Of a DNA stretch of 41,294 nucleotides, positions 5,211 to 31,679 are shown one piece after another. The position numbers and the translations under genes are program-made. The notes beneath the pieces are model-generated. The model saw only the letters and a list, made by a program, of their open reading frames with translations, made no database searches and was not told the DNA's origin. Source of the stretch: a virus; UHGV virus genome UHGV-0110231. One strand, given 5' to 3'. Numbering within the stretch: the stretch's first letter is position 1; every line of letters starts with the position of its first letter.

Positions 5211-5225
5211 TTACCGTTGAGGTAA
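5211..5225. promoter_or_regulatory. Operator-like palindrome (putative PL region)
   Basis: TTACCGTTGAGGTAA; nested in a larger inverted repeat TTACCTC...GAGGTAA. Confidence 0.5.
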
Positions 5226-11509: not shown

Positions 11510-11840
11510 ATCCCCCGCAGAACGCAAAGCCGCGCAGCGCGCTCGGCAGTCAGCCGCCGGTGAGCGCAAAATTGAACTGGTGCTGGATAAGCAGGAGCAG
11601 GAAATGCTGGAGCGTAACTGTGCCGCCCGTCGCCCTGGTCGTGCGCCGTATGAAATGAGCGAATACATCGCGTTACTGATCCGCCAGGATGATGCACGCG
11701 TGCGCGGGCGTATAAAATCGATCAGCAGAAAACGTTGCGGTAAGTGCGGCGAGAGAGTTCCAGTTAATTCATGCCCGTGTAATGGTGACTCGCAATGCTG
11801 GGTGACTAAAGGCTGGCATGAAACGAAATTAATAGTGTGA
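11493..11840 (+). CDS. Basic protein with C-terminal Cys cluster (zinc ribbon); candidate late-gene regulator
   Basis: 115 aa; CGKCGERVPVNSCPCNGDSQC; last gene before a terminator and the terminase genes. Confidence 0.45.
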   Translation: MRFVAKSPAERKAAQRARQSAAGERKIELVLDKQEQEMLERNCAARRPGRAPYEMSEYIALLIRQDDARVRGRIKSISRKRCGKCGERVPVNSCPCNGDSQCWVTKGWHETKLIV

Positions 11841-11848
11841 CATGTCAC
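11837..11848. repeat. Perfect 12-bp palindrome GTGACATGTCAC (copy 1)
   Basis: Overlaps the stop codon of the 11493..11840 gene. Confidence 0.7.
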
Positions 11849-11889
11849 GAGTAGATTATGCATGATGAATTTGATGGATTTTGAATACT

Positions 11890-11915
11890 GCCGCCAACTA
11901 TGGCGGCTTTATTTT
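11890..11915 (+). terminator. Rho-independent terminator upstream of terminase (tR'-like)
   Basis: Hairpin GCCGCCA-acta-TGGCGGC followed by TTTATTTT. Confidence 0.55.
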
Positions 11916-11958
11916 GCATGGTACTATTACCACAACGGTAACTATTACCACGGTGGTT

Positions 11959-12555
11959 ATGATGCCTGCTGAACCTAAAACCTATAAACGCAAATCAACG
12001 CAATTTAAGCCGCTCACAGCAATGCAGGAGGCTTATTGCCAGTCATACATCAAAACGCCTGAAAACCAGACTCAGGCAGCGATTAACGCAGGATTCTCCC
12101 CAAACACAGCGGCAGTTAAAGCCAGTGTCATGATGCGCGATGAACGCATTCAAAAACGGATTGCCGAGTTGATGGAGGAGCGCAACAAACGAATGCGCGT
12201 CAGTGCCGATTACGTTCTCATGCGCCTGGTGGAGATCGACCAGATGGACGTGATTGATATCCTCAACGACGATGGGAGCCTTAAGCCAATCCGCGAGTGG
12301 CCGAAAATCTGGCGCACTACGCTTAGTGGCTTTGATCTGTCATCGACCATCATGAACATGAACGAGGATTCGATAGAGACAATCCTCAAAAAAATTAAAT
12401 GGCCTGACAAGGTGAAGAACCTCGAACTGATTGGTAAGCACGTCGACGTCAACGCATTCAAAGAACGCCTGGATGTTAATGTGAATGTGACAATTGCTGA
12501 TCGCATAGCGGCAGCCAGGAAGCGACTCAAAGAACGTCAGGATGGTAATCAGTGA
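11959..12555 (+). CDS. Terminase small subunit
   Basis: 198 aa; HTH-like N-terminal part (AINAGFSPNTAAVKASVMMRDERIQKRIAEL); immediately precedes and overlaps the large subunit gene. Confidence 0.7.
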   Translation: MMPAEPKTYKRKSTQFKPLTAMQEAYCQSYIKTPENQTQAAINAGFSPNTAAVKASVMMRDERIQKRIAELMEERNKRMRVSADYVLMRLVEIDQMDVIDILNDDGSLKPIREWPKIWRTTLSGFDLSSTIMNMNEDSIETILKKIKWPDKVKNLELIGKHVDVNAFKERLDVNVNVTIADRIAAARKRLKERQDGNQ

Positions 12556-14027
12556 CAGATACAGCGTTATCTCCTGAAGAGCAGTTGATCGAGGATATTG
12601 CAGGGTTCACTCACGATCCGCTTGGCTATGCCCTCTATGCGTTCCCGTGGGGGGAAGAGGGGACTGAACTGGCACATGCTACCGGCCCACGTCAGTGGCA
12701 GGCTGATGCGTTCCGAGAGATACGTGATCACCTGCAGAATCCAGAGACGCGCTATCAGCCGCTTATGCTGGCACGCGCTTCTGGTCACGGTATTGGTAAA
12801 TCCGCATTCATCTCAATGCTGATCAACTGGGGCATGTCCACTTGCGAGGATTGTAAGATCGTGGTGACCGCCAACACCGACAACCAGCTACGAACGAAGA
12901 CCTGGCCGGAAATTATCAAGTGGTCGAACCTTGCTATCACGAAAGACTGGTTTACCTGTACCGCTACTGCTATGTACAGCAATGATCCTGGGCACGACAA
13001 GCGGTGGCGAGCTGACGCAATCCCCTGGTCTGAGCACAACACTGAGGCATTCGCCGGACTACACAACGAGCGCAAACGCATCATCGTGGTATTTGATGAA
13101 GCGTCGAACATTGCGGATCTGGTGTGGGAAGTTGCCGAGGGTGCGCTAACGGACGAAGACACTGAGATTATCTGGGTGGCGTTCGGAAACCCTACACGTA
13201 ACACCGGACGTTTCCGCGAATGTTTCCGCAAATATAAACACCGCTGGAAAACTGCGCAGATTGACAGCCGAACGGTGGAAGGCACTAACAAACAGCAGTT
13301 GCAGAAATGGGTTGATGACTACGGGGAAGACAGCGACTTCGTTAAAATCCGTGTGCGCGGCATATTCCCTGATGCATCTGAATTGCAGTTTATCCCTACC
13401 GGTCTTACTGATGAGGCAATGAAACGGGTGGTGACCGCTGCGCAGGTGGCGCATGCTCCGGTGATAATCGGTGTTGACCCGGCATATTCAGGCGTTGATG
13501 ACGCGGTGATATACCTGCGGCAGGGGCTACACAGTAAGGTGCTGTGGACTGGCAACAAGACTACCGACGATCTGATTATGGCGAAGCGTATCGCTGACTT
13601 TGAAGACCAGTATCAGGCTGATGCGGTGTTCATCGACTTCGGTTACGGTACCGGGCTGAAGTCAATCGGTGACGGTTGGGGGCGCACATGGCAACTTGTT
13701 CCGTTCGGTGGCGCGTCTACTGACCCGCAGATGCTCAACAAGCGTGGGGAGATGTTCAACTCATGCAAGACATGGCTGAGGCTGGGCGGCATGCTGGATG
13801 ACCAGGAAACAGCGGACGACCTGTCGGCGGCAGAGTACAAAGTTCGAGTGGACGGTAAAATCGCTATCGAACCGAAGGAAGATATCAAGGAGCGGCTTGG
13901 GCGTTCGCCGGGTAAAGGCGATGCGCTACTGCTGACGTTTGCGTTCCCTGTGTCTAAGCGTCTGCGAATTCCCGGGCAGCAGAACCAGCAAGGCAAGGCC
14001 ATTACAGATTACGATCCCTATGCTTAA
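12552..14027 (+). CDS. Terminase large subunit
   Basis: 491 aa; size, position and ATPase/nuclease-like organisation. Confidence 0.8.
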   Translation: MTDTALSPEEQLIEDIAGFTHDPLGYALYAFPWGEEGTELAHATGPRQWQADAFREIRDHLQNPETRYQPLMLARASGHGIGKSAFISMLINWGMSTCEDCKIVVTANTDNQLRTKTWPEIIKWSNLAITKDWFTCTATAMYSNDPGHDKRWRADAIPWSEHNTEAFAGLHNERKRIIVVFDEASNIADLVWEVAEGALTDEDTEIIWVAFGNPTRNTGRFRECFRKYKHRWKTAQIDSRTVEGTNKQQLQKWVDDYGEDSDFVKIRVRGIFPDASELQFIPTGLTDEAMKRVVTAAQVAHAPVIIGVDPAYSGVDDAVIYLRQGLHSKVLWTGNKTTDDLIMAKRIADFEDQYQADAVFIDFGYGTGLKSIGDGWGRTWQLVPFGGASTDPQMLNKRGEMFNSCKTWLRLGGMLDDQETADDLSAAEYKVRVDGKIAIEPKEDIKERLGRSPGKGDALLLTFAFPVSKRLRIPGQQNQQGKAITDYDPYA

Positions 14028-14077
14028 TCCGTTAGCGGGGATAATGACGGAGATATCCTCTGGTGAGGATAAAACAA

Positions 14078-14101
14078 AGCCAGCTCATCGGCTGGCTGTT
14101 T
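14078..14101 (+). terminator. Stem-loop terminator after the terminase large subunit gene
   Basis: AGCCAGC-tcatcg-GCTGGCT followed by GTTTGT. Confidence 0.4.
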
Positions 14102-14113
14102 GTGACATGTCAC
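14102..14113. repeat. Perfect 12-bp palindrome GTGACATGTCAC (copy 2)
   Basis: Between the convergent terminase and gp49-like genes. Confidence 0.7.
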
Positions 14114-14117
14114 GGTG

Positions 14118-14474
14118 TTATTGCTCGCTTAACTTCTGCTTCAGCAAGTAACCTTCAAGCATCCAGATTTTGTTTACAGCATTCTGCCGGGCAATCTTCC
14201 GACCAATTTCTGCATCAAAGTTTTCCGGGCTTGCACAGGCGCTCTCTCCGGTGACGGTGAAGCCATTCTTCAGCACCAGTACGCAGAAAGTAAGGAGGTC
14301 TGTAGATTTATGCGCTGTCCACGCATCGCCAACGCCCATATTGGCGGCACGAATACCGTCATAAGCAGTAAAGAAATGCTCTTCAAGAATGATGCTTTCG
14401 ATATATTGAGGCGTAACGCGCGGTGCCGTTTTGCCTTTCTCAACGATTTCTTTTTCGATTTGCTGGTCGTTCAT
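14118..14474 (-). CDS. Gp49-like phage protein of unknown function
   Basis: 118 aa; antisense to the flanking structural genes; family assignment from memory. Confidence 0.5.
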   Translation of the reverse strand: MNDQQIEKEIVEKGKTAPRVTPQYIESIILEEHFFTAYDGIRAANMGVGDAWTAHKSTDLLTFCVLVLKNGFTVTGESACASPENFDAEIGRKIARQNAVNKIWMLEGYLLKQKLSEQ

Positions 14475-14672
14475 AATCTCACCTTAAAAAAATGCCCGGC
14501 GAACCGGGCGAACTGGAAGCAATGAGTTATGCCTTCCGTGGCTGTACGGGTTTACAGCATGAAGTCATCGCAATGGCGTCCTGCTGTAAAAAGGGCGGTG
14601 ATAGTCCTTCAAGGGAAACCATCACCGCCAAGCCCATGGAACTTCTGGCATCACGGTCCTTAGGCGTGATTC

Positions 14673-14749
14673 TGGCGTGGCATGCAGGATTCGAACCTGC
14701 GACCAACCGCTTAGAAGGCGGTTGCTCTGTCCAACTGAGCTAATGCCAC
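14673..14749 (-). tRNA. tRNA-Arg (anticodon UCU), phage-encoded
   Basis: 77-nt cloverleaf read by hand: acceptor GTGGCAT/ATGCCAC, D-arm GCTC..GAGC, anticodon stem ACCGC/GCGGT with loop CTTCTAA, T-arm GCAGG-TTCGAAT-CCTGC, discriminator G, CCA encoded. Confidence 0.85.
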
Positions 14750-15071
14750 AACGCTGAGAGCACTTAGCCTGTTAAGGCACCACACTTTGTCGCGGCTCCA
14801 TAAATGCTCTCATCGTTGTACCCTCGTCTCTTCCGAGGCGTCACACCGAATCGCCGGGATGGTGAATCCCCGTGCGCGGAATAAAACCGCTCGACTTGCA
14901 CATTCCGGCTACCTGGTTCGTTTGCCCGAGCAAGGGAGGGTGCCCCTTAAACGTATCCAGACCGCTATCGGCGCATGTGCCATACGTCGTACTGCTCAAA
15001 ATAAAAGCTCACTCCACCTGTTCAATTTAACGACAAGCCAGTCAGGTTAATAACCGGAATTAACCCTTTGC

Positions 15072-15086
15072 TTACCTGAAAGGTAA
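15072..15086. promoter_or_regulatory. Operator-like palindrome upstream of the structural operon
   Basis: TTACCTGAAAGGTAA. Confidence 0.5.
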
Positions 15087-15176
15087 TAATTTGTGCGTTA
15101 AATGTCAACTATCTACGATAAATAAATCATATGTGGTTAAATTGGTAATAATTTAATTGCGTACGGAGTCATTGAT

Positions 15177-15383
15177 ATGTGCATGGGTAGCTCACCGTCA
15201 GTGCCTGCAACACCAGAAGTTCAGGCAGCACCACAGGAGCAGGATGCCGCCGTTGTTGATGCCCGCGACGAAGAAACTCGTCGCCGTCGCGCTGCTGCTG
15301 GTCGTAGTTCTACGCTGCTTACCGGTTCTCAGGGTGACACATCAACCGCTAATACCAGCGGTAAAACGCTGCTTGGTCAGTAA
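15177..15383 (+). CDS. Small hypothetical protein preceding the portal gene
   Basis: 68 aa; GGAG Shine-Dalgarno; its initiation-region sequence is duplicated before the portal gene. Confidence 0.45.
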   Translation: MCMGSSPSVPATPEVQAAPQEQDAAVVDARDEETRRRRAAAGRSSTLLTGSQGDTSTANTSGKTLLGQ

Positions 15384-15397
15384 CCGGAGTCATTGAA

Positions 15398-17077
15398 ATG
15401 GCGGAAACAACTAAAGAGCGATTGAACAAACAGTTCGCACAACTTGAAAGCGAGCGTCAGTCGTTCGAGCCGCACTGGCGCGAGTTGAGTGATTACATCA
15501 ACCCGCGTGGTTCCCGCTTTCTTACTTCTGAGGTCAACCGTAACGATCGACGCAATACACGCATTATTGATTCGACCGGGACTATGGCGGCGCGCACTCT
15601 CGCCAGCGGCATGATGTCTGGCATCACAAGCCCCGCGCGTCCGTGGTTTCGCCTGGCTACGCCTGATCCTGAAATGATGGATTATGGTCCTGTTAAGTTG
15701 TGGCTTGAGGCGGTGCAGAACCGCATGAACGATATGTTCAATAAGTCGAATCTCTATCAGTCGCTGCCGCAGTTATACGGAAGCCTCGGCACATACAGCA
15801 CTGGTGCAATGGCAGTACTGGAGGATGACGAGGACATCATTCGCACAATGCCATTCCCGATAGGCAGTTACTACCTGGCTAACTCACCTCGTGGCAGTGT
15901 GGACACCTGTTTTCGCAAGTTCTCTATGACTGTTCGTCAGCTTGTTCAGGAGTTCGGGCTAAATAACGTCAGCGAATCCGTAAAAAGCATGTGGGAAAGC
16001 GGCACCTACGAGAAGTGGATTGAAGTGATGCATTCGGTTTACCCGAACATTGACCGCGATACATCGAAGCTGGATAGCAAGAACAAGCCATTCAAATCGG
16101 TTTATTACGAGGTTGGTGGCGATAACGACAAGTTGTTGCGTGAGTCCGGATTTGATGAGTTTCCAATTATGGCTCCGCGCTGGGAAGTTAACGGCGAAGA
16201 TGTTTATGGATCATCATGCCCGGGTATGCTGGCGCTTGGACCTGTTAAGGCATTGCAGCTTCTCCAGAAGCGCAAGTCGCAGTTGATTGATAAAGCCACC
16301 AATCCGCCGATGGTTGCTCCGACTTCCCTCAAGAATCAGCGCGCCTCCCTTCTTCCTGGCGACATCACGTATATCGATCAGATTACTGGTCAGGATGGCT
16401 TCAGGCCTGCTTATCTGGTTAACCCCAGTACAGCAGATTTGGTGGCAGACATTCAGGACACTCGTCAAATCATTAACAGCGCCTACTTTGTCGATCTGTT
16501 CATGATGTTGCAGAACATCAATACCCGCTCGATGCCTGTTGAAGCGGTGATCGAAATGAAAGAAGAAAAACTTCTGATGTTGGGGCCGGTACTTGAGCGT
16601 CTGAACGACGAATGTCTTAATCCTCTCATTGACCGCGCTTTCTCGATGATGGTGCGTAAAAACATGCTGCCGCCACCGCCTGACGCGATGGAAGGCATGC
16701 CCCTGAAGGTCGAATACATTTCCGTCATGGCTCAGGCGCAGAAGTCTATCGGCCTGTCCAGTCTGGCGTCCACGGTTAACTTCATTGGTCAACTTGCGCA
16801 AGCGAAACCAGAAGCTCTCGACAAACTCAACGTTGATCAGGCGATCGATGCATTCGCTGATATGTCCGGAGTGTCTCCAACCGTCATTGTTCCGCAGGAA
16901 CAGGTTGAGCAGGCTCGCCAGCAACGGGCACAGCAGCAACAGCAGCAACAAATGATGGCGATGGGGATGGCGGCGGCACAGGGTGCCAAGACGCTAAGCG
17001 AAGCTAAAACTTCGGATCCGAGTGTTTTGTCAGCTATGGCGAATGCAGTTAGTGGTCAGGGTGGGCAATCACAATGA
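15398..17077 (+). CDS. Portal protein (T7 gp8-like head-to-tail connector)
   Basis: 559 aa; C-terminal Q/M-rich tail (QQQQQQQMMAMGMAAAQG) resembles the T7 gp8 C-terminus. Confidence 0.8.
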   Translation: MAETTKERLNKQFAQLESERQSFEPHWRELSDYINPRGSRFLTSEVNRNDRRNTRIIDSTGTMAARTLASGMMSGITSPARPWFRLATPDPEMMDYGPVKLWLEAVQNRMNDMFNKSNLYQSLPQLYGSLGTYSTGAMAVLEDDEDIIRTMPFPIGSYYLANSPRGSVDTCFRKFSMTVRQLVQEFGLNNVSESVKSMWESGTYEKWIEVMHSVYPNIDRDTSKLDSKNKPFKSVYYEVGGDNDKLLRESGFDEFPIMAPRWEVNGEDVYGSSCPGMLALGPVKALQLLQKRKSQLIDKATNPPMVAPTSLKNQRASLLPGDITYIDQITGQDGFRPAYLVNPSTADLVADIQDTRQIINSAYFVDLFMMLQNINTRSMPVEAVIEMKEEKLLMLGPVLERLNDECLNPLIDRAFSMMVRKNMLPPPPDAMEGMPLKVEYISVMAQAQKSIGLSSLASTVNFIGQLAQAKPEALDKLNVDQAIDAFADMSGVSPTVIVPQEQVEQARQQRAQQQQQQQMMAMGMAAAQGAKTLSEAKTSDPSVLSAMANAVSGQGGQSQ

Positions 17078-17370
17078 CAGATTACGAAGACGATCAACTG
17101 AAAGAAGAAAACGACCGTAAGCAACGTGACATGGCGCAGCGTGAAATTGATGACATTCGCTTTGTCATGAGCAGTGAACAGGGGCGTCGCGTTGTCTGGT
17201 CGGTGCTGGAGAAAGGCCGTGTGTTTTCCGCTATCTCACCGATGGACGCTATGGCAATGGCATTTAATGAGGGGCAACGCAATCTGGCGCTGGAGCTGTT
17301 TCAGCGCGTTATGGCGCATTGCCCTGAACAGTATTTGAAGATGGCCAAAGAGGCCAGTGAACAGGAGTGA
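17074..17370 (+). CDS. Hypothetical head-module protein
   Basis: 98 aa; ATGA overlap with the portal stop. Confidence 0.5.
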   Translation: MTDYEDDQLKEENDRKQRDMAQREIDDIRFVMSSEQGRRVVWSVLEKGRVFSAISPMDAMAMAFNEGQRNLALELFQRVMAHCPEQYLKMAKEASEQE

Positions 17371-17372
17371 TC

Positions 17373-18068
17373 ATGAATTTATTTGAGCGTTTGCTGTATA
17401 GCCGTCTTTGCAATGAGCAACCAGTCGATGGTGGAGCAGCTCCGGCTGCGTCAGAACCGTCAGCGCCTGCAGGTGATAGCCCTGCTCCAGTTGGTGATCC
17501 ATCACAACAGGAAGGTGATAAGCCACAACCTGTTGCTGATGGCGATAAACCTGCTGATGACAAAAAGCCTGAAAACGATAAGCAGGATGAAAAAAAGGAC
17601 GGCGATAAACCAGAGGGTGCGCCTGAGAAGTACGAGTTTCAGGCTGCCGAAGGCGTAGAGCTGGATACAGAAGCGTTGAAGGAATTCGAGCCGGTGGCGC
17701 GAGAACTTAACCTGACCAACGAGCAAGCGCAAAAGCTGGTTGATGCTTATCCGAAGATTCTGGCAGGTGTTCAGCAGCGCCAGGCAGAAGCCTGGCAGAA
17801 AACAACCGAGCAGTGGGCTGCGGATGTAAAAGCTGACAAAGAAATCGGTGGCGACAAGTTGATTTCTAACCTTAGCGCCGCACAGCGTGCGCTTGACCAG
17901 TTCGGGACACCTGAACTCAAAGAATATCTGAACACCACCGGGCTGGGTAATCACCCTGATCTGGTCAAAACGTTCGTGAAAATCGGAAAGGCGATGTCTG
18001 AAGATGGCATGGTCACCGGTGGTAATGAAGGCCAGCGTAGTGCGGCCGAAGTGCTCTATGGCAAATAA
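17373..18068 (+). CDS. Scaffolding protein
   Basis: Acidic, Pro/Ala/Asp/Lys-rich low-complexity N-terminal half; position between portal and capsid. Confidence 0.65.
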   Translation: MNLFERLLYSRLCNEQPVDGGAAPAASEPSAPAGDSPAPVGDPSQQEGDKPQPVADGDKPADDKKPENDKQDEKKDGDKPEGAPEKYEFQAAEGVELDTEALKEFEPVARELNLTNEQAQKLVDAYPKILAGVQQRQAEAWQKTTEQWAADVKADKEIGGDKLISNLSAAQRALDQFGTPELKEYLNTTGLGNHPDLVKTFVKIGKAMSEDGMVTGGNEGQRSAAEVLYGK

Positions 18069-18076
18069 GAGAGGAA

Positions 18077-19069
18077 ATGACAATGGCTGTTAAAGGCTTA
18101 ACTGCGCTAACGCTGGCTGACTGGGGTAAGCGCGTCGATCCAAACGGGAAAGTCGATAAGATTATCGAGCTTCTCGGTCAAACTAACCCGATCCTTCAGG
18201 ATATGCCTTTTGTCGAAGGGAACCTTCCTACCGGACACCGAACCACCATTCGTTCTGGTTTACCTTCAGCTACCTGGCGTTTGCTGAACTATGGCGTACA
18301 GCCAAGCAAATCAACCACAGTGCAGGTAACCGATTCCGTTGGCATGCTGGAAACCTATGCTGAAGTCGATAAATCACTGGCTGATCTGAACGGCAATACC
18401 GCTGAATTCCGCCTGTCTGAAGACCGCGCATTTATTGAAGCGATGAATCAGCAGATGGCGCAGACGCTGTTTTATGGTGATTCCAGCGTTAACCCTCAGC
18501 AGTTTATGGGACTGTCCTCCCGCTATTCCAGCCTGTCTGCGGGTAATGCTCAGAACATCATTGATGCTGGTGGCACGGGTACAGATAACACCTCAATCTG
18601 GTTAGTGGTGTGGGGCGAAAACACCGTGCATGGCATCTTCCCGAAAGGGCAGAAGGCTGGCATCCAGATGGAAGATAAAGGCCAGGTGACACTGGAAGAT
18701 GCTAATGGCGGCAAGTACGAAGGCTATCGCACCCATTACAAATGGGACAACGGACTTGCTCTGCGTGACTGGCGTTATGTTGTTCGCATTGCAAACATCG
18801 ATGTCAGCAATCTTTCAGAACCTTCCTCTGCCGCAAATATTGCGAAGTTGATGGTTAAAGCACTGCATCGCATTCCAAACCGTGGAATGGGTCGCCCGGT
18901 GTTCTACATGAACCGCACTGTAGGCCAGGCTCTTGATCTGCAATCTCTGGAGAAAACATCTCTGGCGATCAGCGTAAAAGAGACAGAAGGCGAGTGGTGG
19001 ACTTCATTCCGTGGTGTACCAATCCGTGAAACTGATGCGCTTCTGGAAACAGAAGCCCGTGTGGTGTAA
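18077..19069 (+). CDS. Major capsid protein
   Basis: 330 aa; position after the scaffold gene; followed by a stem-loop. Confidence 0.75.
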   Translation: MTMAVKGLTALTLADWGKRVDPNGKVDKIIELLGQTNPILQDMPFVEGNLPTGHRTTIRSGLPSATWRLLNYGVQPSKSTTVQVTDSVGMLETYAEVDKSLADLNGNTAEFRLSEDRAFIEAMNQQMAQTLFYGDSSVNPQQFMGLSSRYSSLSAGNAQNIIDAGGTGTDNTSIWLVVWGENTVHGIFPKGQKAGIQMEDKGQVTLEDANGGKYEGYRTHYKWDNGLALRDWRYVVRIANIDVSNLSEPSSAANIAKLMVKALHRIPNRGMGRPVFYMNRTVGQALDLQSLEKTSLAISVKETEGEWWTSFRGVPIRETDALLETEARVV

Positions 19070-19120
19070 CGCCTGTTATTAACCAGTGGGTCGTAACAGA
19101 CCCACTAATGGAGAAAGAAG

Positions 19121-19558
19121 ATGATCACCGACAAACTGTTGATGTTCTCCGAAGCACAGGCGGTAACTGATACCGCGGCTTCTACTGACGTAATCGATCT
19201 AGGTCCAATTGATGGAAATCGTCGCGATATCGGCGTGGGTTACCCGCTTGAGTTTTGGGCGCTGGTTAACGAAGCCGCCACGGCAAGTGGTGAGGCAACT
19301 GTAAACATCCAGTTGCAGACGAGTGAGAATAACAGCTCATGGTCCACTATTTATGATAGTGGCGCACTGGCAAAGGCTACCCTGACAGCAGGTAAACGAG
19401 TTGTTTCTGCAAAGGTGCCTGCCGGTGTTCAGCGATATCTGCGTGTTAACTACTCCGTCGCAACTGGCCCACTAACGGCCGGCAAATTCACTGCGGGTAT
19501 TAGTCTGGATGTTGATGCCAATACACCGTACCCGATCCGCTCAAAAGTAACTGGTTAA
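19121..19558 (+). CDS. Putative capsid decoration/stabilisation protein
   Basis: 145 aa; directly downstream of the capsid gene. Confidence 0.4.
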   Translation: MITDKLLMFSEAQAVTDTAASTDVIDLGPIDGNRRDIGVGYPLEFWALVNEAATASGEATVNIQLQTSENNSSWSTIYDSGALAKATLTAGKRVVSAKVPAGVQRYLRVNYSVATGPLTAGKFTAGISLDVDANTPYPIRSKVTG

Positions 19559-19568
19559 GGTGATTTCG

Positions 19569-19904
19569 ATGTCAGGTGAGAAACCAAGATACCGCGTTCT
19601 GCGCCTCTCTCATATCCATAACACACTGTGGCCGGAGGGGGCAGAAATCGAATACGAAGGTGAGCCTGGTAGCGCACTGGAACCTGTTAACGATGCAGCC
19701 AGACAGGCAAAAGCAAAGGTAGCAGGAAAGGTGACTATGGCAGCAACCAGCACCAAAATCATCAACGATGTGTCAGATGATGGTGAACTGGATAAGCTCC
19801 GTGAAGAGTACGAATTGCTCTTTAACGAGAAGCCACACCATAACGCCAAAGCCGAAACGCTCCGCGAGAAGATCGCAGATAAGCGTAAAGAACTGGGCGT
19901 GTAA
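19569..19904 (+). CDS. Hypothetical structural-module protein
   Basis: AAGGTG Shine-Dalgarno; followed by a terminator. Confidence 0.45.
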   Translation: MSGEKPRYRVLRLSHIHNTLWPEGAEIEYEGEPGSALEPVNDAARQAKAKVAGKVTMAATSTKIINDVSDDGELDKLREEYELLFNEKPHHNAKAETLREKIADKRKELGV

Positions 19905-19920
19905 GCCTCGCGAATCAGAC

Positions 19921-19942
19921 AAGGGGCTTCGGCCCCTTTATT
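19921..19942 (+). terminator. Rho-independent terminator
   Basis: AAGGGGC-ttcg-GCCCCTT followed by TATT. Confidence 0.5.
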
Positions 19943-19954
19943 GCAGGAGTGTAT

Positions 19955-20278
19955 ATGGAACTCGTAAACCTCAAAACCGGCACTGACAGCTACCAGGATG
20001 AGAGCGGAGAAACCAGAACTCGCGATGAATACCCGTGGGGGCTGTGCATCACTCTTAATAATGACACATTGAATAAGCTGAAGGCGCAACCTCAGGGCGT
20101 CGGAACAGAAGTGATGATAACTGCAAGGGCTGTTATTCGAGGCCTGTCTGCCAGAGAAACTGACGATGGTGTTAACCGCAGCGCCGATCTGCAGATCACT
20201 GATATGGCGATCGCTCCTGTTTCCGGGGATGTAGAAAAATCAGCGGCTGAAACCCTGTACGGCAATGGGGGTGAGTAA
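19955..20278 (+). CDS. Hypothetical virion protein
   Basis: AGGAGTG Shine-Dalgarno; coupled to the downstream gene. Confidence 0.45.
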   Translation: MELVNLKTGTDSYQDESGETRTRDEYPWGLCITLNNDTLNKLKAQPQGVGTEVMITARAVIRGLSARETDDGVNRSADLQITDMAIAPVSGDVEKSAAETLYGNGGE

Positions 20279-23354: not shown

Positions 23355-23818
23355 TGATCGATGTTCGAATTGTTCCCGCTACCGAAGAGCATCTTCAGAT
23401 GATTTTGCCGGATGTTCGTCAGGCTGATATTGACGAACTGTATGCGGTATCGCTGATGACTACCGAAGATGCGCTGCGTGTTGGTCTTCGCACTGCGACT
23501 ATGGCCTGGTCAGGATTTGCGAACGGAGAACTGGTAACCATGTTTGGCGTATCTCCGGCGTCAATGATCGGTGGCAATGGTACGCCCTGGCTGGTAGGAA
23601 CCAGCCGTATTGAAAAATATCAGAAGACATTTCTTCGCCACTGCCGCCCTGTATTGCAGCAGATGCTGGCAGTTTATCCGCGCCTGGAAAACTACGTCGA
23701 CGAGCGAAACCATGTTGCCAAAGCATGGCTGCACTGGCTTGGATTCAGGCTTGAAGAAGCCGCGCCTTATGGTGCTCTTGGTCTTAATTTCCACAGATTT
23801 CACATGGAGAGAAAATAA
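23354..23818 (+). CDS. Internal virion protein (small)
   Basis: 154 aa; coupled within the tail/ejection operon. Confidence 0.45.
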   Translation: MIDVRIVPATEEHLQMILPDVRQADIDELYAVSLMTTEDALRVGLRTATMAWSGFANGELVTMFGVSPASMIGGNGTPWLVGTSRIEKYQKTFLRHCRPVLQQMLAVYPRLENYVDERNHVAKAWLHWLGFRLEEAAPYGALGLNFHRFHMERK

Positions 23819-24363
23819 TGTGCGATCCGGTTATTGCTGGTGGCGCAATGCTCGCCATGAGTGGCATTCAGGCATACACCCAGTACCAACAGGGAAAGTA
23901 TGCCTCGAAGGTTGCAGAAGCGAACGCAGATATAGCCACTGCTCAGGCAAATGATGCAATAAACAGAGGTAACGCTGAAGCTGAGCAACGGCGCAGAGAG
24001 ACCCGACAGCGGCTTGGTACACAGGCGGCGACAATGGGGGCTACCGGCGCTGATTTATCTACAGGTAACGCGCTGGATATATTTGGCGACACTGCCCAGT
24101 TTGGCGCTCTTGATTCGCTGACGACGGTGAATAACGCGCAACGCGAGGCTTACGGTTATCAGGTTCAGGCTGCCAACTATAAAGCAGAAGCCAGTTCAGC
24201 CCGTAAACAGGGGAATGTGGGAGCAGCAACAACATTGCTCACTGCGCCTCTGAAGGCATACGGTGCGTACCAGATGTTTGGTGGGACGTGGAGTCCGTTT
24301 ACTCAAAGCACTCCTGCGCCAATCGGGGCAGCAGCAGGAACCAGATTACCCGGAGGATTATAA
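23818..24363 (+). CDS. Internal virion protein (gp14-like position)
   Basis: 181 aa; Gly/Ala/Gln-rich. Confidence 0.45.
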   Translation: MCDPVIAGGAMLAMSGIQAYTQYQQGKYASKVAEANADIATAQANDAINRGNAEAEQRRRETRQRLGTQAATMGATGADLSTGNALDIFGDTAQFGALDSLTTVNNAQREAYGYQVQAANYKAEASSARKQGNVGAATTLLTAPLKAYGAYQMFGGTWSPFTQSTPAPIGAAAGTRLPGGL

Positions 24364-26876
24364 TGCCAGTCGTACCAACAGTATCCGGACGTCAGGTTGA
24401 GAGCCGTGGAGTTCAGTCAGCAGGCTTGCAGACGTTTTCTCAGCCAGGTATTGGTGATGCTTTTGTTCTGGCAGGGGCAGAGACTATTGATGTTTTTGGT
24501 CAGGCAAAACAGCGTGCCAATATCGCTCTGGCTCAGGAGGCATCTCTTAACCTCAGTCAGATAAGCAGCGATCTGCTGAATAACCCTGAAACAGGGTTGC
24601 TTAACCTGAAAGGGAAAAATGCTATTGGAAAAGGCCATGAGTATACGCAGCAGTTTGATGCTCAGGTCGAACAACTGGCTATGTCGCTGCCGGATGAACA
24701 GGCTCGTAATACTTTCATGCAGCAGGCGCAGCAGCAGCGCATTCAGTTCACTACGCAGGCCGGGCGGCACGAGATAGGGCAAATAAACGCCTACGAAGAA
24801 GGCCAGTTTCAGGCTACGCTGCTGAACAATGGTAAAAATGCCGCAGCATTGTATGGCGACAACGCCGCATACGTATTGGCTAATAAGCAAACTTTCCAGC
24901 AAATTGAGGATTACGGCATTGCGCATGGCTGGAGCGACGAGCAAATCCAGGCCAAGAAAGTCGAGTTTAAAGAGAAGGTTGCTGATGCCGCATTGTCCCA
25001 GTGGTCGGCAAACAATGCGACCGCATTCATCCAAAGTAATGGCGAGTTAAGTGATACTGCTGCTGGAGCTCGCCGTGCTGTAGCAGATAGTGACTCTTCC
25101 GAGCGTGCCCGTGGCATACGCAACAATAACCCAGGAAATCTCGAATACAGCAAAACTAATCCGTGGGTAGGCCAGACCGGTGATGATGGTCGATTTGCTA
25201 AATTCGAAACACCTGAACACGGGATTCGTGCATTAGGGCGAAACCTGATGTCGTATCAGAGGCAGGGTATTGATACCGTCAGCGAGATAATTAATCGCTG
25301 GGCACCGCCTACTGATAAAAATGACACTATGTCGTATATCAAAGCAGTGTGCGAACAACTTGGCGTTTCTGCTGATGAGCCTCTCGATGCATCTAATCCT
25401 GATACCCTGAAGGCGCTTTGTGCAGCCATTATCCATCATGAGAACGGTAGCCAGCCATACAGTGATCAGCAGTTAACTGCTGGTGTCAGTGCAGCACTTG
25501 GTTTATCAACAATTCCAACCAACACCAAACGCTATACCGGTAATGCAGCATTCGATGCGGCATCTCCTGAGGCGCAGGCAAGTTTTATGCGAAAGGCGGA
25601 TCAACTGCGTCGGCAGCAGCAGGCTGAATATAAAACGATGATTGACAGCCAGGTTCGCGATGCGACAGCTGCGTATATGCGTGGCGTTGAATTTCCTAAC
25701 CCACCTGGTGAGGCTGATTTTATTGCAGCTTATGGAGTCAGAGAAGGAAACCTGCGATATACCGAGTTCAGAAATACGCAAATCGCCGGACAGTATATAG
25801 GCTCTTTCCGCAACATGCCGACAAGCAGCATTACAGCATATGTTGAGCAATTACGCCCGGATACTGGTGAGACAGGGGAGGGTTATGCGGCACGAGCCGC
25901 TCTTTATGACAACGTTGTGTCGGCTGCAAATCAGGTGATAAAGCAGCGACAGGCTGATCCTGTACAGTTCTCTCTTGCCGCCGGACAGGCAAAGCCTATC
26001 GACATGAGCAATAAGGATAACTTTGGACAGAGCGTTGCCTTGCGTGCTGCTCAGGTCAGTGACCTTGCTAAGTCATATGGCACTCCACTGACGTTCTTTT
26101 CCAAAGACGAGGCCAATCAGATCGGTGTTTTCTTTCGTGATGCGCCCGTTTCCCAACAGGCAGCATATCTCGATACCATCAGGCAGAGCACTGGTGGTGG
26201 GCAGGTGTATATGTCAGCACTACAGCAGATCAGTGCCAACGCTCCATCTGCTGCCGTTGCCGGGATACTGATGGATAAGCCAGGTGGTATTTTGGCAGAA
26301 AAAAACTGGTTTAATCCGGATGTTTCCGTGTCTCCTGAAACCGCTGCGCAGACAATTCTTGCTGGCGCGGCGGCTCGTAAAGGTACTGATGACGCGAAAG
26401 GTATTCCGATGCCTAAAGATGCTGATCTCCGCCTTGAGTTTTCTGACATGGTGAAGGATGCATTTGCTGGTGATGCTCAGGGGGCATCAATGGCATACGA
26501 GATCGCAAAGGACTATTACGCTGGTGTGATGGCGAAAAAAGGCGTGGTATCAGGCGAAATTGACAATGATATCTGGAAACAGGCTGTTAACGTAGCTACA
26601 GGTGGCGTGCATGACTATAACGGAATGGGGAATGTTCTTTTGCCGTGGGGAATGTCTGCAGAGCAATTCGATAAGCAGGTTAATCAGGCTTGGAATGAAC
26701 AAGTTGTTGGCACAGGGATAAAAACACCGCCTGGTCAGTATGGTTTGCAAAGTTACGGCGATAGTCAGTACCTGGTGAAACTTGGTACTGGTTATCTGCT
26801 AAAAGATGATGGTTCTCCCGTTGTTCTTGATCTGACACAGAAGCGTCAGAGATTCTCCGGAGATATTCCGCAATGA
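24363..26876 (+). CDS. Large internal virion / ejection protein
   Basis: 837 aa from the ATG at 24363 (TAATG overlap with the previous stop). Confidence 0.55.
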   Translation: MPVVPTVSGRQVESRGVQSAGLQTFSQPGIGDAFVLAGAETIDVFGQAKQRANIALAQEASLNLSQISSDLLNNPETGLLNLKGKNAIGKGHEYTQQFDAQVEQLAMSLPDEQARNTFMQQAQQQRIQFTTQAGRHEIGQINAYEEGQFQATLLNNGKNAAALYGDNAAYVLANKQTFQQIEDYGIAHGWSDEQIQAKKVEFKEKVADAALSQWSANNATAFIQSNGELSDTAAGARRAVADSDSSERARGIRNNNPGNLEYSKTNPWVGQTGDDGRFAKFETPEHGIRALGRNLMSYQRQGIDTVSEIINRWAPPTDKNDTMSYIKAVCEQLGVSADEPLDASNPDTLKALCAAIIHHENGSQPYSDQQLTAGVSAALGLSTIPTNTKRYTGNAAFDAASPEAQASFMRKADQLRRQQQAEYKTMIDSQVRDATAAYMRGVEFPNPPGEADFIAAYGVREGNLRYTEFRNTQIAGQYIGSFRNMPTSSITAYVEQLRPDTGETGEGYAARAALYDNVVSAANQVIKQRQADPVQFSLAAGQAKPIDMSNKDNFGQSVALRAAQVSDLAKSYGTPLTFFSKDEANQIGVFFRDAPVSQQAAYLDTIRQSTGGGQVYMSALQQISANAPSAAVAGILMDKPGGILAEKNWFNPDVSVSPETAAQTILAGAAARKGTDDAKGIPMPKDADLRLEFSDMVKDAFAGDAQGASMAYEIAKDYYAGVMAKKGVVSGEIDNDIWKQAVNVATGGVHDYNGMGNVLLPWGMSAEQFDKQVNQAWNEQVVGTGIKTPPGQYGLQSYGDSQYLVKLGTGYLLKDDGSPVVLDLTQKRQRFSGDIPQ

Positions 26877-28675
26877 GTTACTTTGGCCTTAATCCAGTAA
26901 ACCAGAATCAGCAGCTTGAAGAAGCAGCATCAAATCCAGCTGGCTTTAACAGCGATGTTGGTTTTTTCGACAATGCTGTAGGAGCGGCATTGTCTGGTTT
27001 GTACTCCGGGCTGGTGGCAAAGCCAGACCAGTTTCTATGGGCAGGGATGGATAAAATCGTATCCCCGGTTGCTCAGTTTGTTAACGAAAACACCTCGCTC
27101 AATGACACTTCAGTTTCATACATTGCTGAGCAGAGAAAACTAGCAGAGCAGCAGGTTAAGCGGCTGACGCCTGATGCCGCGACAACCGGAACCGCCGGGC
27201 AGGTCCTTTATGGGTTGTTCGATATGGGCGGGCAGGCTGTTGTCGGTACAACGCTCGGTGGTCCGGTCGGAGGTGCTGCGGCAGTAACTTCTCTACAGGG
27301 TTTTTCTGAGTTTGAACGGCTGACAGCACAGGGTGTTGATTTCAGGACGGCGCAGGAAGCGGGATTAGTGCAGGGTATTACTGCTGGTGCCGGAACACTG
27401 ATCCCTATGAGCCTCGGGTTACGTGCTGGTGGTGCGCTGGCGGAAGGTGTGGCGGCCCAGCTTGCGCGGACTGGTGAAAGTTCAGTGCGACGCGCCGCAG
27501 CAACAGCAGTACGTGCAACGCCAGATATTGCCTATGCTGCAGGTACAAATATTGCGTTCGGTATGGCACAGCGTGGGCTTACTGCAAAAACGCTTCGTGA
27601 TGGTGGCTATAGCGAAATGGCTAACCAGTATGATGTGTTGGATCGACAGGCAATTGCTATTGATGCTGTTCTTGGGGTGGCGTTTGGTGGTGTCGGCAGA
27701 TTTATTAACTCTCGCGGCGAGTCTACAAGCGCACCAAATTTTTCACCAGTTGATGTTGATGCTGCACTGGCGGCGAATGCCGCTCATCATGCTGAAATTG
27801 ATATTGCGCCCGGCGTGCCGATCAACGTGCTTTCGCGCAATTCTCACATTCAGGCTCTGCGAAAAGCTATGTCTGATGTTAGCCAGGGGAGACCTGTAGA
27901 CGTTGCCAGCATTGTTGAGTCTGCATCTTTCAGTGAAATTCCTAGGCGCAAGAGTCTGCTGTCTCAGGCAGTTAATGAGGCTCTGTCATCTGTAGATAAT
28001 GGAGTAACGGCGCGCGCTATAGAAAATCGGTTGCTTGAAGAACAGGCCGCGCAGCTTTTGCCGCGTGGAGATAGACAGGTTTACCAGTCTGAAATCGCTA
28101 ATAGCCAACGAATTATTGAAAATCTCACTGAACAGCGTGCACAAATTCTTGCAGAAGAGCCAACCGGTAGCGGTAAAGCTTTGTCTCGTGCTCGATCAGA
28201 TAAACAGGCTAGACTTCGCGATATTGATCAACGAATCCGGCAGGCACAAGAACGCCTGGAATTTTCCCGTAACGCGTTGGCACCGCACGAGCCAGGCGGT
28301 CAGTTTTTTGAGGCTCGAGCAGAACTGGCTCGGAGACAGCAGGCAGAAAGTGAACTTAATGCTCAGGCTGTTTCATTCTATAAAACAGCAGAGGTCAGGA
28401 TGCCAGACGAAGTAGCTCCTTTTGAGCCTGATAAAATATTGCAACAGGCAGAACAAAAAATAATGTCAGATCAGGCAGGAGATATTGATCTGCGCATAGC
28501 TGAAGACTCGCTGCTTGAATCACCTGACATGATAATCACCGTGCTGGATGATGATGGTAATCCACAATCGCGCAGTGCGCGTGAAGTACTGGATGAAGCG
28601 AACAGGGAAAGTGAGCAGGCAATACAGGATTCCAGCCTGTTTGATGTCGCTGTGGCGTGTTTCTTGAGAGGTTAA
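26873..28675 (+). CDS. Internal virion / ejection protein
   Basis: 600 aa; Ala/Gly-rich N-terminal region, coiled-coil C-terminal half. Confidence 0.5.
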   Translation: MSYFGLNPVNQNQQLEEAASNPAGFNSDVGFFDNAVGAALSGLYSGLVAKPDQFLWAGMDKIVSPVAQFVNENTSLNDTSVSYIAEQRKLAEQQVKRLTPDAATTGTAGQVLYGLFDMGGQAVVGTTLGGPVGGAAAVTSLQGFSEFERLTAQGVDFRTAQEAGLVQGITAGAGTLIPMSLGLRAGGALAEGVAAQLARTGESSVRRAAATAVRATPDIAYAAGTNIAFGMAQRGLTAKTLRDGGYSEMANQYDVLDRQAIAIDAVLGVAFGGVGRFINSRGESTSAPNFSPVDVDAALAANAAHHAEIDIAPGVPINVLSRNSHIQALRKAMSDVSQGRPVDVASIVESASFSEIPRRKSLLSQAVNEALSSVDNGVTARAIENRLLEEQAAQLLPRGDRQVYQSEIANSQRIIENLTEQRAQILAEEPTGSGKALSRARSDKQARLRDIDQRIRQAQERLEFSRNALAPHEPGGQFFEARAELARRQQAESELNAQAVSFYKTAEVRMPDEVAPFEPDKILQQAEQKIMSDQAGDIDLRIAEDSLLESPDMIITVLDDDGNPQSRSAREVLDEANRESEQAIQDSSLFDVAVACFLRG

Positions 28676-28680
28676 ATTAA

Positions 28681-31155
28681 ATGAGACAGGAATGTATACA
28701 AGCGGTTCAGCAGGCGGCGCAGCGCATGTTAACGGCGCGAGAAATACAGAACATTGAAGACCGCATTTATCGAAATATGCGCTCCATTGCTCGTGATGAC
28801 CCGATGTCGTGGCGACAACTTTCCGAATCAGAGCGGCTATATCGAGCAGCACAATTGGCATCTGAAGAATTACAGCGAGAAGTGGCATTAAAGAAACGTC
28901 GTGTGGCTCTCACTATAGCCGCGCGTCAGAGATTGGATAAATTTATCAATAGCTATCAAGGGGCTGATGGGAAACTTGGCGCTCTTAACCGTACTATAGC
29001 TTTTAATGCAGACGGTAAATCTAATTTCCTCTCTGTTGAATCCAGAACAAAAGCCACCCGTGATTATGCATTGAGTCAATTGCAGGAGGCATTCGAAGCA
29101 GTTGATCCTCGCTTTTTTGGTCTGTTTGAAGATGAAGCTGGCGTACGTGACCTGGTATATGAAATGCGGGGGCAAAATACTGGCAATGCTAAAGCAAGAA
29201 AAGGTGCTAAGGCGTGGAGAGAAGTTACAGAGCTGCTGCGCCGCCGGTTTAATGATGCTGGTGGGGACATTGGCTATCTCGAAAACTGGGGGATCCCTCA
29301 ACATCATTCTATGGAAAAGGTTGGGGCGGTATCAAAGGATAAGTGGGTTAGCGATGTTATAGGTAAGCTGGATCGCAAATATTATACCCGAGCCGATGGA
29401 CAACTGATGAACGATGCCGAGTTGTCTGCATTTCTTGGAGAGGCTTATAACACGATCGCTACTGGTGGGCTGAATAAGCTTACTGATACCGGAATGCGAA
29501 TTTCCGGCGCACGTGCTAACCGTGGTAATGCATCACGACAGATACATTTCAAAGATGCAGATTCCTATCTCCAATATCAACAACTTTATGGCGATCGCTC
29601 TCTATGGGAAATCATGGTCGGTCACCTGGAAGGTATCAGTAAAGATATTGCTCTGGTGGAAACATATGGTCCAAACCCCGATCATGTTTTCCGCTCCCTT
29701 CTTGATCAGGTTAAGGCAGAAACGGCAACAGCTAACCCGAGTAAAACCGGTAGCGTCGAGCGTCTGGCGAACAAAACAGAGAACTTGTACAACTTTATTT
29801 CCGGAAAAACACAGCCTGTAGCGAATCCCCACATCGCGCGATGGTCTGACAATATCCGCAACTGGCTGGTTGCCAGCAGACTCGGATCCGCGTTGCTGTC
29901 ATCGTTCTCTGATCTTGGAACCATGTATCTGTCTGCGAAGGTTACCAACCTTCCAATGAACCAGTTATTTCGCAACCAGCTTGAAGCTATGGACCCAACG
30001 AACCGTACTGAGCTTGCGCGGGCGCGCCGCGCTGGCCTGGCGATGGAATCTCTACTTGGCAGCGTTAACCGCTGGGCGATGGATAATATGGGGCCGTCTG
30101 TGTCTCGTTGGGCGGCAACGGCGGTAATGCGTGCCAGTGGGCTTACAGCATGGTCAGATGCGCACAAGCGCGCCTATGGCGTAACCATGATGGGAAGCCT
30201 GGGAGAAGTAGTGTCACGGACACCAGACCTTCGTAGCCTTGATGACTCTGATTTTCGTATCCTGAAAAGCAAAGGGATTACTGACACAGACTGGAGCGTA
30301 TGGAAGTTGGCGCAACAGGAGGACTGGGGGAACGGTAATAATACGATGCTGACGCCGGAAAGCATTATGCGTATCCCTGATTCAGCAGTTAAACATCTTG
30401 GTGAGCCTGAACGCGTGAAATTTGAGGCAATGCGTAAACTGCTCGGTGCCGTAACTGAAGAAGTTGATATGGCTGTTATTACACCGGGAGCACGTGAGCA
30501 ACTGATAACCGGTTCTGGTATTCAGCGTGGAACATGGAAAGGTGAATTAACGAGAAGTGTTTTCCTGTTTAAATCGTTCCCTATCTCGGTTGTTATGCGT
30601 CACTGGTCACGCGCTATGGGTATGCCGTCTGCTGGTGGGCGTGCGGCATATATTGCGACGTTTATTGCCAGTACGACCATTCTTGGCGCTTTGTCGCAGC
30701 AACTTAACGACCTTGCGTCTGGTCGTAATCCTCGAGAGATGACAGGAGAAGATGCCGCAAAATTCTGGCTTGGTGCTCTACTGAAAGGTGGTGGTCTTGG
30801 TCTTTACGGTGACTTTTTATTGTCAGATCACACTAGGTACGGAAGCGGCGCGCTGGCGTCGATGCTTGGCCCGGTAGCTGGTCTGGTTGATGACGTAGTG
30901 AAGATAGCTCAGGGCATACCGCTAAATGCTGTGGAAGGGAAGAGTGAGCAGACTGGTGGTGATCTGGTGAAGCTGGGGAAAGGTTTGATGCCAGGTGCGA
31001 ATCTCTGGTACTTGAAGGCGGCTCTCGATCACATGATCTTTAACCAGATGCAGGAGTATTTTTCACCAGGCTATTTGCGTAAAATGGAGCAACGTTCGAA
31101 GAAAGAGTTTAACCAGACATACTGGTGGCGACCTCAGGATGTCACTCCGCAATAA
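28681..31155 (+). CDS. Large internal virion / ejection protein (gp16-like position)
   Basis: 824 aa; last large gene before the tailspike region. Confidence 0.55.
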   Translation: MRQECIQAVQQAAQRMLTAREIQNIEDRIYRNMRSIARDDPMSWRQLSESERLYRAAQLASEELQREVALKKRRVALTIAARQRLDKFINSYQGADGKLGALNRTIAFNADGKSNFLSVESRTKATRDYALSQLQEAFEAVDPRFFGLFEDEAGVRDLVYEMRGQNTGNAKARKGAKAWREVTELLRRRFNDAGGDIGYLENWGIPQHHSMEKVGAVSKDKWVSDVIGKLDRKYYTRADGQLMNDAELSAFLGEAYNTIATGGLNKLTDTGMRISGARANRGNASRQIHFKDADSYLQYQQLYGDRSLWEIMVGHLEGISKDIALVETYGPNPDHVFRSLLDQVKAETATANPSKTGSVERLANKTENLYNFISGKTQPVANPHIARWSDNIRNWLVASRLGSALLSSFSDLGTMYLSAKVTNLPMNQLFRNQLEAMDPTNRTELARARRAGLAMESLLGSVNRWAMDNMGPSVSRWAATAVMRASGLTAWSDAHKRAYGVTMMGSLGEVVSRTPDLRSLDDSDFRILKSKGITDTDWSVWKLAQQEDWGNGNNTMLTPESIMRIPDSAVKHLGEPERVKFEAMRKLLGAVTEEVDMAVITPGAREQLITGSGIQRGTWKGELTRSVFLFKSFPISVVMRHWSRAMGMPSAGGRAAYIATFIASTTILGALSQQLNDLASGRNPREMTGEDAAKFWLGALLKGGGLGLYGDFLLSDHTRYGSGALASMLGPVAGLVDDVVKIAQGIPLNAVEGKSEQTGGDLVKLGKGLMPGANLWYLKAALDHMIFNQMQEYFSPGYLRKMEQRSKKEFNQTYWWRPQDVTPQ

Positions 31156-31164
31156 GGAAGTGTT

Positions 31165-31338
31165 GTGTTTTTAATTATTTTGAGTGTGATAATTTCTGGT
31201 GGGTTGTTATTTATTGACCGCTACAAATATTTTCTTAACCATCAGACTCAAGCTATTTGCTGGTTCATCTTTGTTGTGCAGGGAGTAGTTCTTGTTGCAA
31301 GCCTTATTGAGGGGAGGCCTCTGATTTTTACTGGGTAA
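31165..31338 (+). CDS. Small hydrophobic membrane peptide (57 aa)
   Basis: Not in the ORF track; GTG start 4 nt after an AGGAAG Shine-Dalgarno. Confidence 0.3.
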   Translation: MFLIILSVIISGGLLFIDRYKYFLNHQTQAICWFIFVVQGVVLVASLIEGRPLIFTG

Positions 31339-31350
31339 ATAGGTGACTAC

Positions 31351-31647
31351 ATGCAAGCTATAGGATTCATTGTTTATATCGTCGTTGGTCTTTTTCAGTT
31401 GGCAGTAATTATGGCTGGGCTTGAATCATGGTTTGGATTGCACTGGATAATTGCAGCCCCCATTGCTTTCATCGTTAGCTATATTCCATTTGTTGGAGCG
31501 ATTGTTGGTATGGTTGGCGCTGTGGATGTATGGCGGTGGGAGTGGTGGCAGGCTGGCCTTCTCTTCTTTGGTGGGATCATCTTTGCTATTGTCTGCGGTG
31601 GAATGTCATCATTTTTCGAATGGCTATCATTCAGAAAAAGAACGTGA
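31351..31647 (+). CDS. Polytopic inner-membrane protein; candidate superinfection-exclusion factor
   Basis: 98 aa, roughly three hydrophobic helices; sits where P22 carries sieA. Confidence 0.5.
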   Translation: MQAIGFIVYIVVGLFQLAVIMAGLESWFGLHWIIAAPIAFIVSYIPFVGAIVGMVGAVDVWRWEWWQAGLLFFGGIIFAIVCGGMSSFFEWLSFRKRT

Positions 31648-31655
31648 CATGTCAC
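31644..31655. repeat. Perfect 12-bp palindrome GTGACATGTCAC (copy 3)
   Basis: Overlaps the stop codon of the 31351..31647 gene, in the same register as copy 1. Confidence 0.7.
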
Positions 31656-31679
31656 AGGCCGCTTTCGCGGCCTTTAAAT

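Follow-up and report, generated by a model that had tools for sequence, protein, structure and literature searches.

A conserved 12-bp palindrome at transcription-unit ends of an epsilon15-like prophage is coupled to the gp49/gp46 gene family

Among the closest described counterparts of the element considered here is matS, the 13-base-pair (bp) site GTGACRNYGTCAC that is bound by MatP (PMC6907758); in E. coli its consensus is GTGACATTGTCAC, and MatP reads it through helix alpha4 and strand beta1 (PMC8669397). The element is a 12-bp palindrome, GTGACATGTCAC, of the virus genome UHGV-0110231, a stretch of 41,294 bp (hereafter the window) that represents an epsilon15/phiV10-like (Uetakevirus) prophage. 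It has the arms of matS separated by a spacer of 2 bp rather than 3, the E. coli consensus carrying one extra T. We find that GTGACATGTCAC represents, in this prophage, a more general site, GTGAC-N2-GTCAC, which is real, conserved, and specifically coupled to a single gene family, that of epsilon15 gp49 and N15 gp46. Judging from sequence, we put at roughly 0.55 the probability that these sites are the cognate binding sites of the family protein, encoded in the window at 11493–11840, and that they serve it at operon ends beside terminators. Systems made up of a DNA-binding protein and its palindromic target sites are known already; what is new here is a cassette linked to a stop codon, the predicted combination of a ribbon-helix-helix (RHH) domain with a TraR-like one, and a site that amounts to matS minus one base pair. 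Full-text literature searches for the 12-mer and its variants returned nothing relevant, and in the searchable literature we found neither the motif nor the function of the family described.

Exactly three perfect copies of GTGACATGTCAC occur in the window, at 11837–11848 (copy 1), 14102–14113 (copy 2), and 31644–31655 (copy 3), and an exact scan thus reproduced the three identical copies listed in the first-pass annotation of this DNA. That annotation had also called such a repetition very unlikely by chance, and rightly so: base composition predicts 0.0024 copies in the window (Poisson P for three or more, 2e-9), 100 dinucleotide-preserving shuffles of the window yielded no copy at all, and a chance origin is excluded. 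Allowing two mismatches adds a single site, at 17126; a relaxed scan for GTGAC-N2-GTCAC returns the same three sites only, and no 13-mer of the matS type is present in the window. Each copy is found where transcription units end, namely at the early-right operon, at the junction of terS-terL with a convergent gene, and at the junction of the structural operon with an Ant-like gene. Copy 1 is the primary, gene-linked site and overlaps the stop codon of the gp49/gp46-family gene, the TGA of open reading frame (ORF) 11493–11840 occupying positions 11838–11840 inside the palindrome. Copy 3 likewise contains the TGA (31645–31647) of ORF 31351–31647, abuts a terminator hairpin, and faces the Ant-like gene across a convergent junction; the register of the stop codon is the same in both copies (G-TGA-C), as had been claimed earlier. 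Copy 2 is flanked by terL (12552–14027, plus strand) and by a convergent gene on the minus strand (14118–14474; PF13876, 'N4 gp49/Sf6 gene 66'), which is the junction of convergent terminase and gp49-like genes given in the annotation, and it comes 4 nucleotides (nt) after the hairpin that follows terL, another 4 nt separating it from the stop of the convergent gene. Its dismissal of CRP and LexA sites holds as well, the spacing of GTGACATGTCAC differing from both the CRP consensus (TGTGA-N6-TCACA) and the LexA consensus (CTGT-N8-ACAG). It drew no link to the upstream gene and did not mention the resemblance to matS.

The coupling to a gene is seen in a scan of IMG/VR with the 14-mer TGTGACATGTCACG, in which one and the same gene precedes the palindrome, also where epsilon15-type terminase genes are missing from the locus. 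This gene is a homologue of window ORF 11493–11840, and so of epsilon15 gp49 and N15 gp46 (PHROG 536, 'transcriptional regulator'). The motif starts 1 nt before the TGA of the family gene in all 49 N15-like loci, in 47 of 54 Yersinia P2-like loci, and in 77 of 80 epsilon15-like loci; among loci that had been selected by the motif, it has this position in 36 of 45. The neighbouring genes differ by lineage, and the family gene is the sole constant neighbour of the site. Across 3.49 Mb of carrier loci the arms GTGAC and GTCAC are separated by 2 bp at 330 sites, against 0–3 sites for each of the spacers 0, 1, and 3–7, and scrambled-arm controls in the same loci gave a median of 1. The arms never vary, and each clade has its own central dinucleotide (AT, TG, GC, or AC/CC).

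The arrangement recurs on very different phage backbones. In the Pectobacterium myophage ZF40, whose family protein is 68% identical to that of the window, GTGACATGTCAC lies 2 nt after the stop and two other copies are present. N15 (37% identity) has GTGACTGGTCAC overlapping the TGA in the same register, together with two other copies, and most of the N15-like loci have one or two further copies. In the Yersinia P2-like loci (42–45% identity for the Yersinia phage itself) the site takes the form GTGACGCGTCAC and there are few other copies. Vibrio phage K233 (33% identity) has its nearest copy 226 nt downstream of the stop and three copies in all, as well as one 13-mer, GTGACACCGTCAC (L126, 19491–19503), which is a true matS-type sequence and overlaps the TGA of gene 0027. 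In a Mu-like prophage (L314; 33% identity) the site is translated as V-T-G-H just before a later stop and one other copy is found, and in a lambdoid/Mor-type phage (L315; 40% identity) one copy lies within the family gene and two lie elsewhere. Vibrio-type carriers also show paired sites 33 bp, or three helical turns, apart (L316, 10771 and 10804; L313, 10517 and 10550), one site of the L313 pair having a 1-bp spacer; these pairs look like a cooperative operator arrangement.

The gene at 11493–11840 is read from the plus strand, likely from a GTG at 11502, which gives the 112-amino-acid form seen in homologues. No Pfam or NCBIfam model matches the protein, and among the matches listed its homologues are all annotated as 'hypothetical', the PHROG label being 'transcriptional regulator'. 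A profile search of 1.84 billion representative proteins gathered 231 clusters (at 50% identity), nearly all of 100–140 amino acids. The family begins with a basic helix, RK-x3-R-x-R, in which R11 and R16 are at least 90% conserved, followed by a variable extended segment, two helices, and the pattern CxxCGxxhP ... C ... GxxxC-x2-T. The beta-strand residues are variable while R11 and R16 are conserved, in parallel with the variable centre and invariant arms of the site. Modelling points weakly to an RHH-like head with a beta-alpha-alpha core. AlphaFold with a shallow alignment performed poorly (predicted local distance difference test score 61), a later model was usable, and Foldseek searches of PDB and BFVD with the protein model were uninformative. 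The predicted core, the palindromic target, and the paired sites of some carriers, 33 bp apart, would be points in common with RHH regulators such as Arc, Mnt, CopG, MetJ, and the TacA/KacA antitoxins; the phage system differs from these in having its sites where genes and operons end rather than at its own promoter, and in its extra basic helix and predicted zinc finger.

The C-terminal half is predicted, again weakly but with better support than the head, to be a zinc finger of the DksA/TraR type with a four-Cys knuckle. The family profile, compared with all PDB sequences, returned YbiI and TraR as its top three matches (E 0.006–0.009), and hhalign gave 81% probability for TraR (E 1e-5, residues 50–108) and 3.8% for DksA. 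The C-terminal 60 residues align with TraR of the F plasmid and YbiI of E. coli through CxxCGxxhP ... GxxxC. Small size and a gene placed among the accessory early genes of mobile elements are also shared with DksA/TraR proteins, which further include Orf73 of phage lambda. The differences are considerable. Compared with the C-x2-C-x17-C-x2-C motif of DksA/TraR, the fourth Cys is an invariant Thr and another Cys lies in mid-loop (in the window protein, C82-x2-C85-x16-C102-x2-T105, plus C94 and C96); there is a 50-residue N-terminal extension with DNA-binding-like features, and the similarity is below the Pfam threshold. PF01258, presumably the DksA/TraR zinc-finger model, is absent among the Pfam matches listed for the family protein. 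The acidic tip with which an N-terminal helix or coiled coil of DksA/TraR proteins reaches into the RNA polymerase secondary channel is absent, the equivalent region being basic and Pro-rich (RRPGRAPY) and preceded by about 50 residues. We know of no cognate DNA site for TraR or DksA. An HNH nuclease was considered for the Cys-rich tail and rejected, with no profile or fold match listed and only BFVD HNH matches at E above 1. Likewise, a basic leucine zipper in epsilon15 gp48 (from a PF00170 note) was dropped as a lead once the linkage to the gp49 family had emerged.

Where it would contact DNA, the phage protein resembles MatP in layout. Helix alpha4 of MatP has a K-x3-R-x-R motif (KQTIRAR) just ahead of its RHH strand, an arrangement mirrored in the phage protein. 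At about 112 amino acids, however, the phage protein is without the four-helix bundle or coiled coil of MatP and has a predicted zinc finger instead, and its genomes carry one to four sites, one of them fused to the gene stop, whereas MatP has 23 sites in a chromosomal macrodomain. The MatP domains PF06303 and PF17414 gave no Pfam match in the phage protein. That the protein works like MatP at the DNA is, by this analogy, a lead to follow, and membership in the MatP family is unsupported by the comparison.

The resemblance raises the question of whether host MatP itself binds the palindromes as matS-like sites, which would link the prophage to the Ter-organising, MukBEF-unloading system of its host. 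The arms are identical to those of GTGACRNYGTCAC, only the extra T of the consensus sets the two apart, and the sampled carriers infect Escherichia, Salmonella, Klebsiella, Enterobacter, Yersinia, Pectobacterium, and Vibrio, taxa in which MatP occurs. We nevertheless consider this improbable. The spacer is strictly 2 bp, the 330 sites of this kind in the carrier loci standing against one 13-mer, with none in the window, and a spacer shorter by one base pair rotates and shifts the half-sites, while MatP reads both arms and centre. Nor does binding by host MatP account for a site that, in unrelated phages, is joined to the stop codon of a single gene family.

Conservation among Uetakevirus relatives was assessed in seven complete genomes chosen by homology rather than by motif (the window, phiV10, epsilon15, SPN1S, Tyrion, Kp4865-1, and HEMP4), each of which has three copies of the palindrome. 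The same three junctions are occupied in epsilon15, SPN1S, Tyrion, HEMP4, and phiV10 despite diverged flanks. Epsilon15, which is about 80% identical to the window in the aligning parts of 11000–15500, keeps the perfect 12-mer at all three junctions amid different flanks, and copy 1 of phiV10, GTGACATGTTAC, has one mismatch. Copy 3 is at the equivalent junction in six of the seven genomes. Among 80 epsilon15-like IMG/VR loci, which were fetched through the upstream protein and not through the motif, copy 1 is found in 77; copy 2 is found in 54 of the 75 loci that cover its junction, five others having one-mismatch variants and one a truncated half-site, while in the remaining loci the block of terminator plus palindrome is replaced. 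Copy 1 is therefore nearly universal, and the other copies are common but dispensable. The first-pass annotation had suggested a search for the 12-mer at the same junctions of related phages and had named its absence there as a refutation; related phages do carry it at those junctions.

The same annotation had proposed a regulator binding site, a hotspot of recombination or module exchange, or a packaging or processing signal. The first of these is the best supported, a specific candidate binder having emerged in the protein whose stop codon copy 1 contains, and the second has descriptive support in these genomes. The window and HEMP4 (L321, 15184) are near-identical upstream of copy 2 (14102) and unrelated immediately downstream of it, the window and phiV10 (L001, 19493) are unrelated upstream of copy 3 (31644) and identical downstream, and at every junction one flank is poorly conserved. 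That the palindrome is mainly a junction at which mosaic modules are exchanged is, however, quite unlikely in our estimation. For homologous exchange, 12 bp is not much; whatever conserved functional element stands at a border would resemble a breakpoint; and an exchange junction predicts neither invariant arms around a variable centre nor the linkage to one gene in N15, P2-like, Mu-like, and ZF40 phages.

All three copies adjoin predicted intrinsic terminator hairpins. The hairpin at 11890–11907 (plus strand), followed by TTTATTTT, lies between copy 1, from which 41 nt separate it, and the Rep operator and terS beyond, and an equivalent is found in epsilon15, SPN1S, and Tyrion. Copy 2 is adjoined by a bidirectional terminator-like hairpin at 14078–14097 that is flanked by T-runs, the better of them on the minus strand. 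The hairpin at 31656–31673 (plus strand) begins at the base after copy 3, an adjacency kept in epsilon15, phiV10, SPN1S, Tyrion, and HEMP4. It could be supposed that the palindrome, too, acts as RNA, as an mRNA 3'-end hairpin with an influence on processing, stability, termination, or the end of translation at the UGA; a stop codon is embedded in two of the copies, and each of the three is bracketed by a stop and a terminator for at least one sense of transcript. The 12-mer lacks the stable G+C-rich hairpin and T-run of an intrinsic terminator, the real terminators being the neighbouring hairpins, and GTGACATGTCAC itself folds only marginally, at -1.2 kcal/mol with a z-score of 0 against shuffles. 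The terminator stems vary among relatives, apparently by paired changes (judged by eye and uncounted), and the 12-mer does not vary, its arms never covarying; this contrast argues for sequence-specific recognition rather than RNA structure. Some phages, moreover, have the site inside ORFs or upstream of a promoter, and a role as RNA seems to us correspondingly remote. A packaging (pac) or other terminase processing signal is very improbable, for although copy 1 lies about 110 nt upstream of terS and Vibrio phage K233 has a copy about 20 nt upstream of its terS, there are three copies per genome, and in N15, ZF40, P2-like, and Mu-like carriers the sites have no terminase genes nearby.

If the gp49/gp46-family protein is the binder, as we prefer to think, a dimer of it would recognise GTGAC-N2-GTCAC, the basic helices RK-x3-R-x-R reading the invariant GTGAC arms and an RHH-type beta-ribbon reading the variable centre, in the manner in which MatP reads matS. 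One site accompanies the gene, overlapping its stop, and further sites are scattered in the carrier genome. Given the position of the sites in this prophage, next to terminators where transcription units end, we propose that the bound protein may act on arriving RNA polymerase during lytic growth through its TraR-like module: it could be a roadblock, strengthen termination, or keep operons that adjoin or converge insulated from each other. DksA/TraR proteins dock on RNA polymerase. A role at boundaries fits the second conserved site of N15, which follows the last gene of the repA operon and lies 24 bp upstream of the -35 element of a promoter predicted on the minus strand and directed at the antirepressor genes; we take this promoter to be Pa. 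A more ambitious version would have an undescribed, widespread phage cassette in which a MatP-like DNA-reading head, a TraR/DksA-like zinc finger that docks on RNA polymerase, and a matS-like site punctuate or insulate transcription via the secondary-channel face, perhaps also interfering with host MatP/MukBEF by mimicry of matS. Taken as a whole, this is speculative and rather unlikely.

Several observations weigh against binding by the family protein at operon ends. The effect of the candidate protein on RNA polymerase is purely something that we infer. Alignment with MatP by hhalign gave a probability of 0.14–4.8%, in the RHH register, so homology is statistically unsupported, although the test was a weak one, its MatP profile being built of close relatives of E. 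coli MatP (87% identity or more, apart from a single sequence at 69%). The placement of sites at 3' ends is unusual for RHH regulators. Among the Uetakevirus genomes, the third copy of Kp4865-1 lies inside a gene of the structural operon and not at the third junction, and sites 2 and 3 are dispensable, site 2 being absent, mutated, or truncated in 21 of 75 relatives. Adjacency to terminators is confined to the epsilon15-like group and is seen in neither N15 nor ZF40, and some carriers have intragenic copies, as in repA of N15 and in gp08 and cII of ZF40. Finally, one lineage (L026, L053, and L116) has two conserved copies of GTGACATGTCAC and no gp49/gp46-family gene in the stretch examined; the family gene may be located in some other part of the contig, or the copies may have a different binder. 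This is a separate phage lineage with YdaT_toxin and Sipho_Gp157 genes, and its paired copies are 5.1–5.4 kb apart (L026, 6848 and 12274; L053, 1463 and 6515; L116, 876 and 6185).

The coupling described here gives a putative 12-bp target and a candidate partner to a family that goes by no more than 'hypothetical protein' or 'transcriptional regulator' in the sources searched, with carriers among epsilon15-like, N15-like, P2-like, Mu-like, Vibrio, and ZF40 phages. Should the domain prediction be correct, the protein would extend the DksA/TraR group to a member that is tethered to DNA, and phages would have a new way of controlling RNA polymerase at set positions. The gap of one base to matS bears on how spacer length separates a host chromosome-organising code from a phage code, and on possible crosstalk between the two systems. 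For annotation, GTGAC-N2-GTCAC beside a family gene can serve to mark where operons end and mosaic segments meet in these prophages.

A second family of dispersed palindromes, TTACC-N5-GGTAA, is found in the window at 5211, 5273, 5985, 6370, 8316, 8378, 11927, and 15072, and matches the 'repressor' protein_bind sites of the epsilon15 record (ATTACC-N5-GGTAAT). One such Rep-type palindrome lies between the terminator of copy 1 and terS, and another lies upstream of the portal operon. The identification of GTGACATGTCAC as an epsilon15-type Rep operator was rejected, the epsilon15 record annotating this different palindrome, found elsewhere in the window. The Rep operators of epsilon15 and SPC32H do share with GTGACATGTCAC the dispersal of multiple palindromic copies in the same genomes, near late operons; they differ in sequence and positions, are promoter-proximal, and are bound by a known helix-turn-helix repressor. 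Promoter activity was likewise considered and rejected for GTGACA as a -35 element, two sites reaching only 9 of 12 consensus matches and a conserved -10 being absent. The terS ORF called mechanically at 11881–12555 starts at a TTG within the terminator region; the true start, judged against epsilon15, is probably the ATG near 11958, beyond the Rep operator.

Degenerate copies of the palindrome are present just past the portal gene both in the window (GTGACATGGCGC, 17126–17137) and in phiV10 (GTGACATGGCAC, 5306), and may be a decayed site or a product of chance. The GenBank records of phiV10 and Tyrion split the palindrome across the record ends. A physical genome end at the palindrome was rejected, these records (L001 and L319) having been opened right after the stop of the gp49-family gene as an annotation convention. 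The prophage itself is integrated at the 3' end of guaA, in which the window begins (1–60); the start of the window carries the attachment (att) core ATTGAGTGGGAATGATT reported for phage vB_EcoP_ZX5, and the prophage integrase gene follows at 246–1496.

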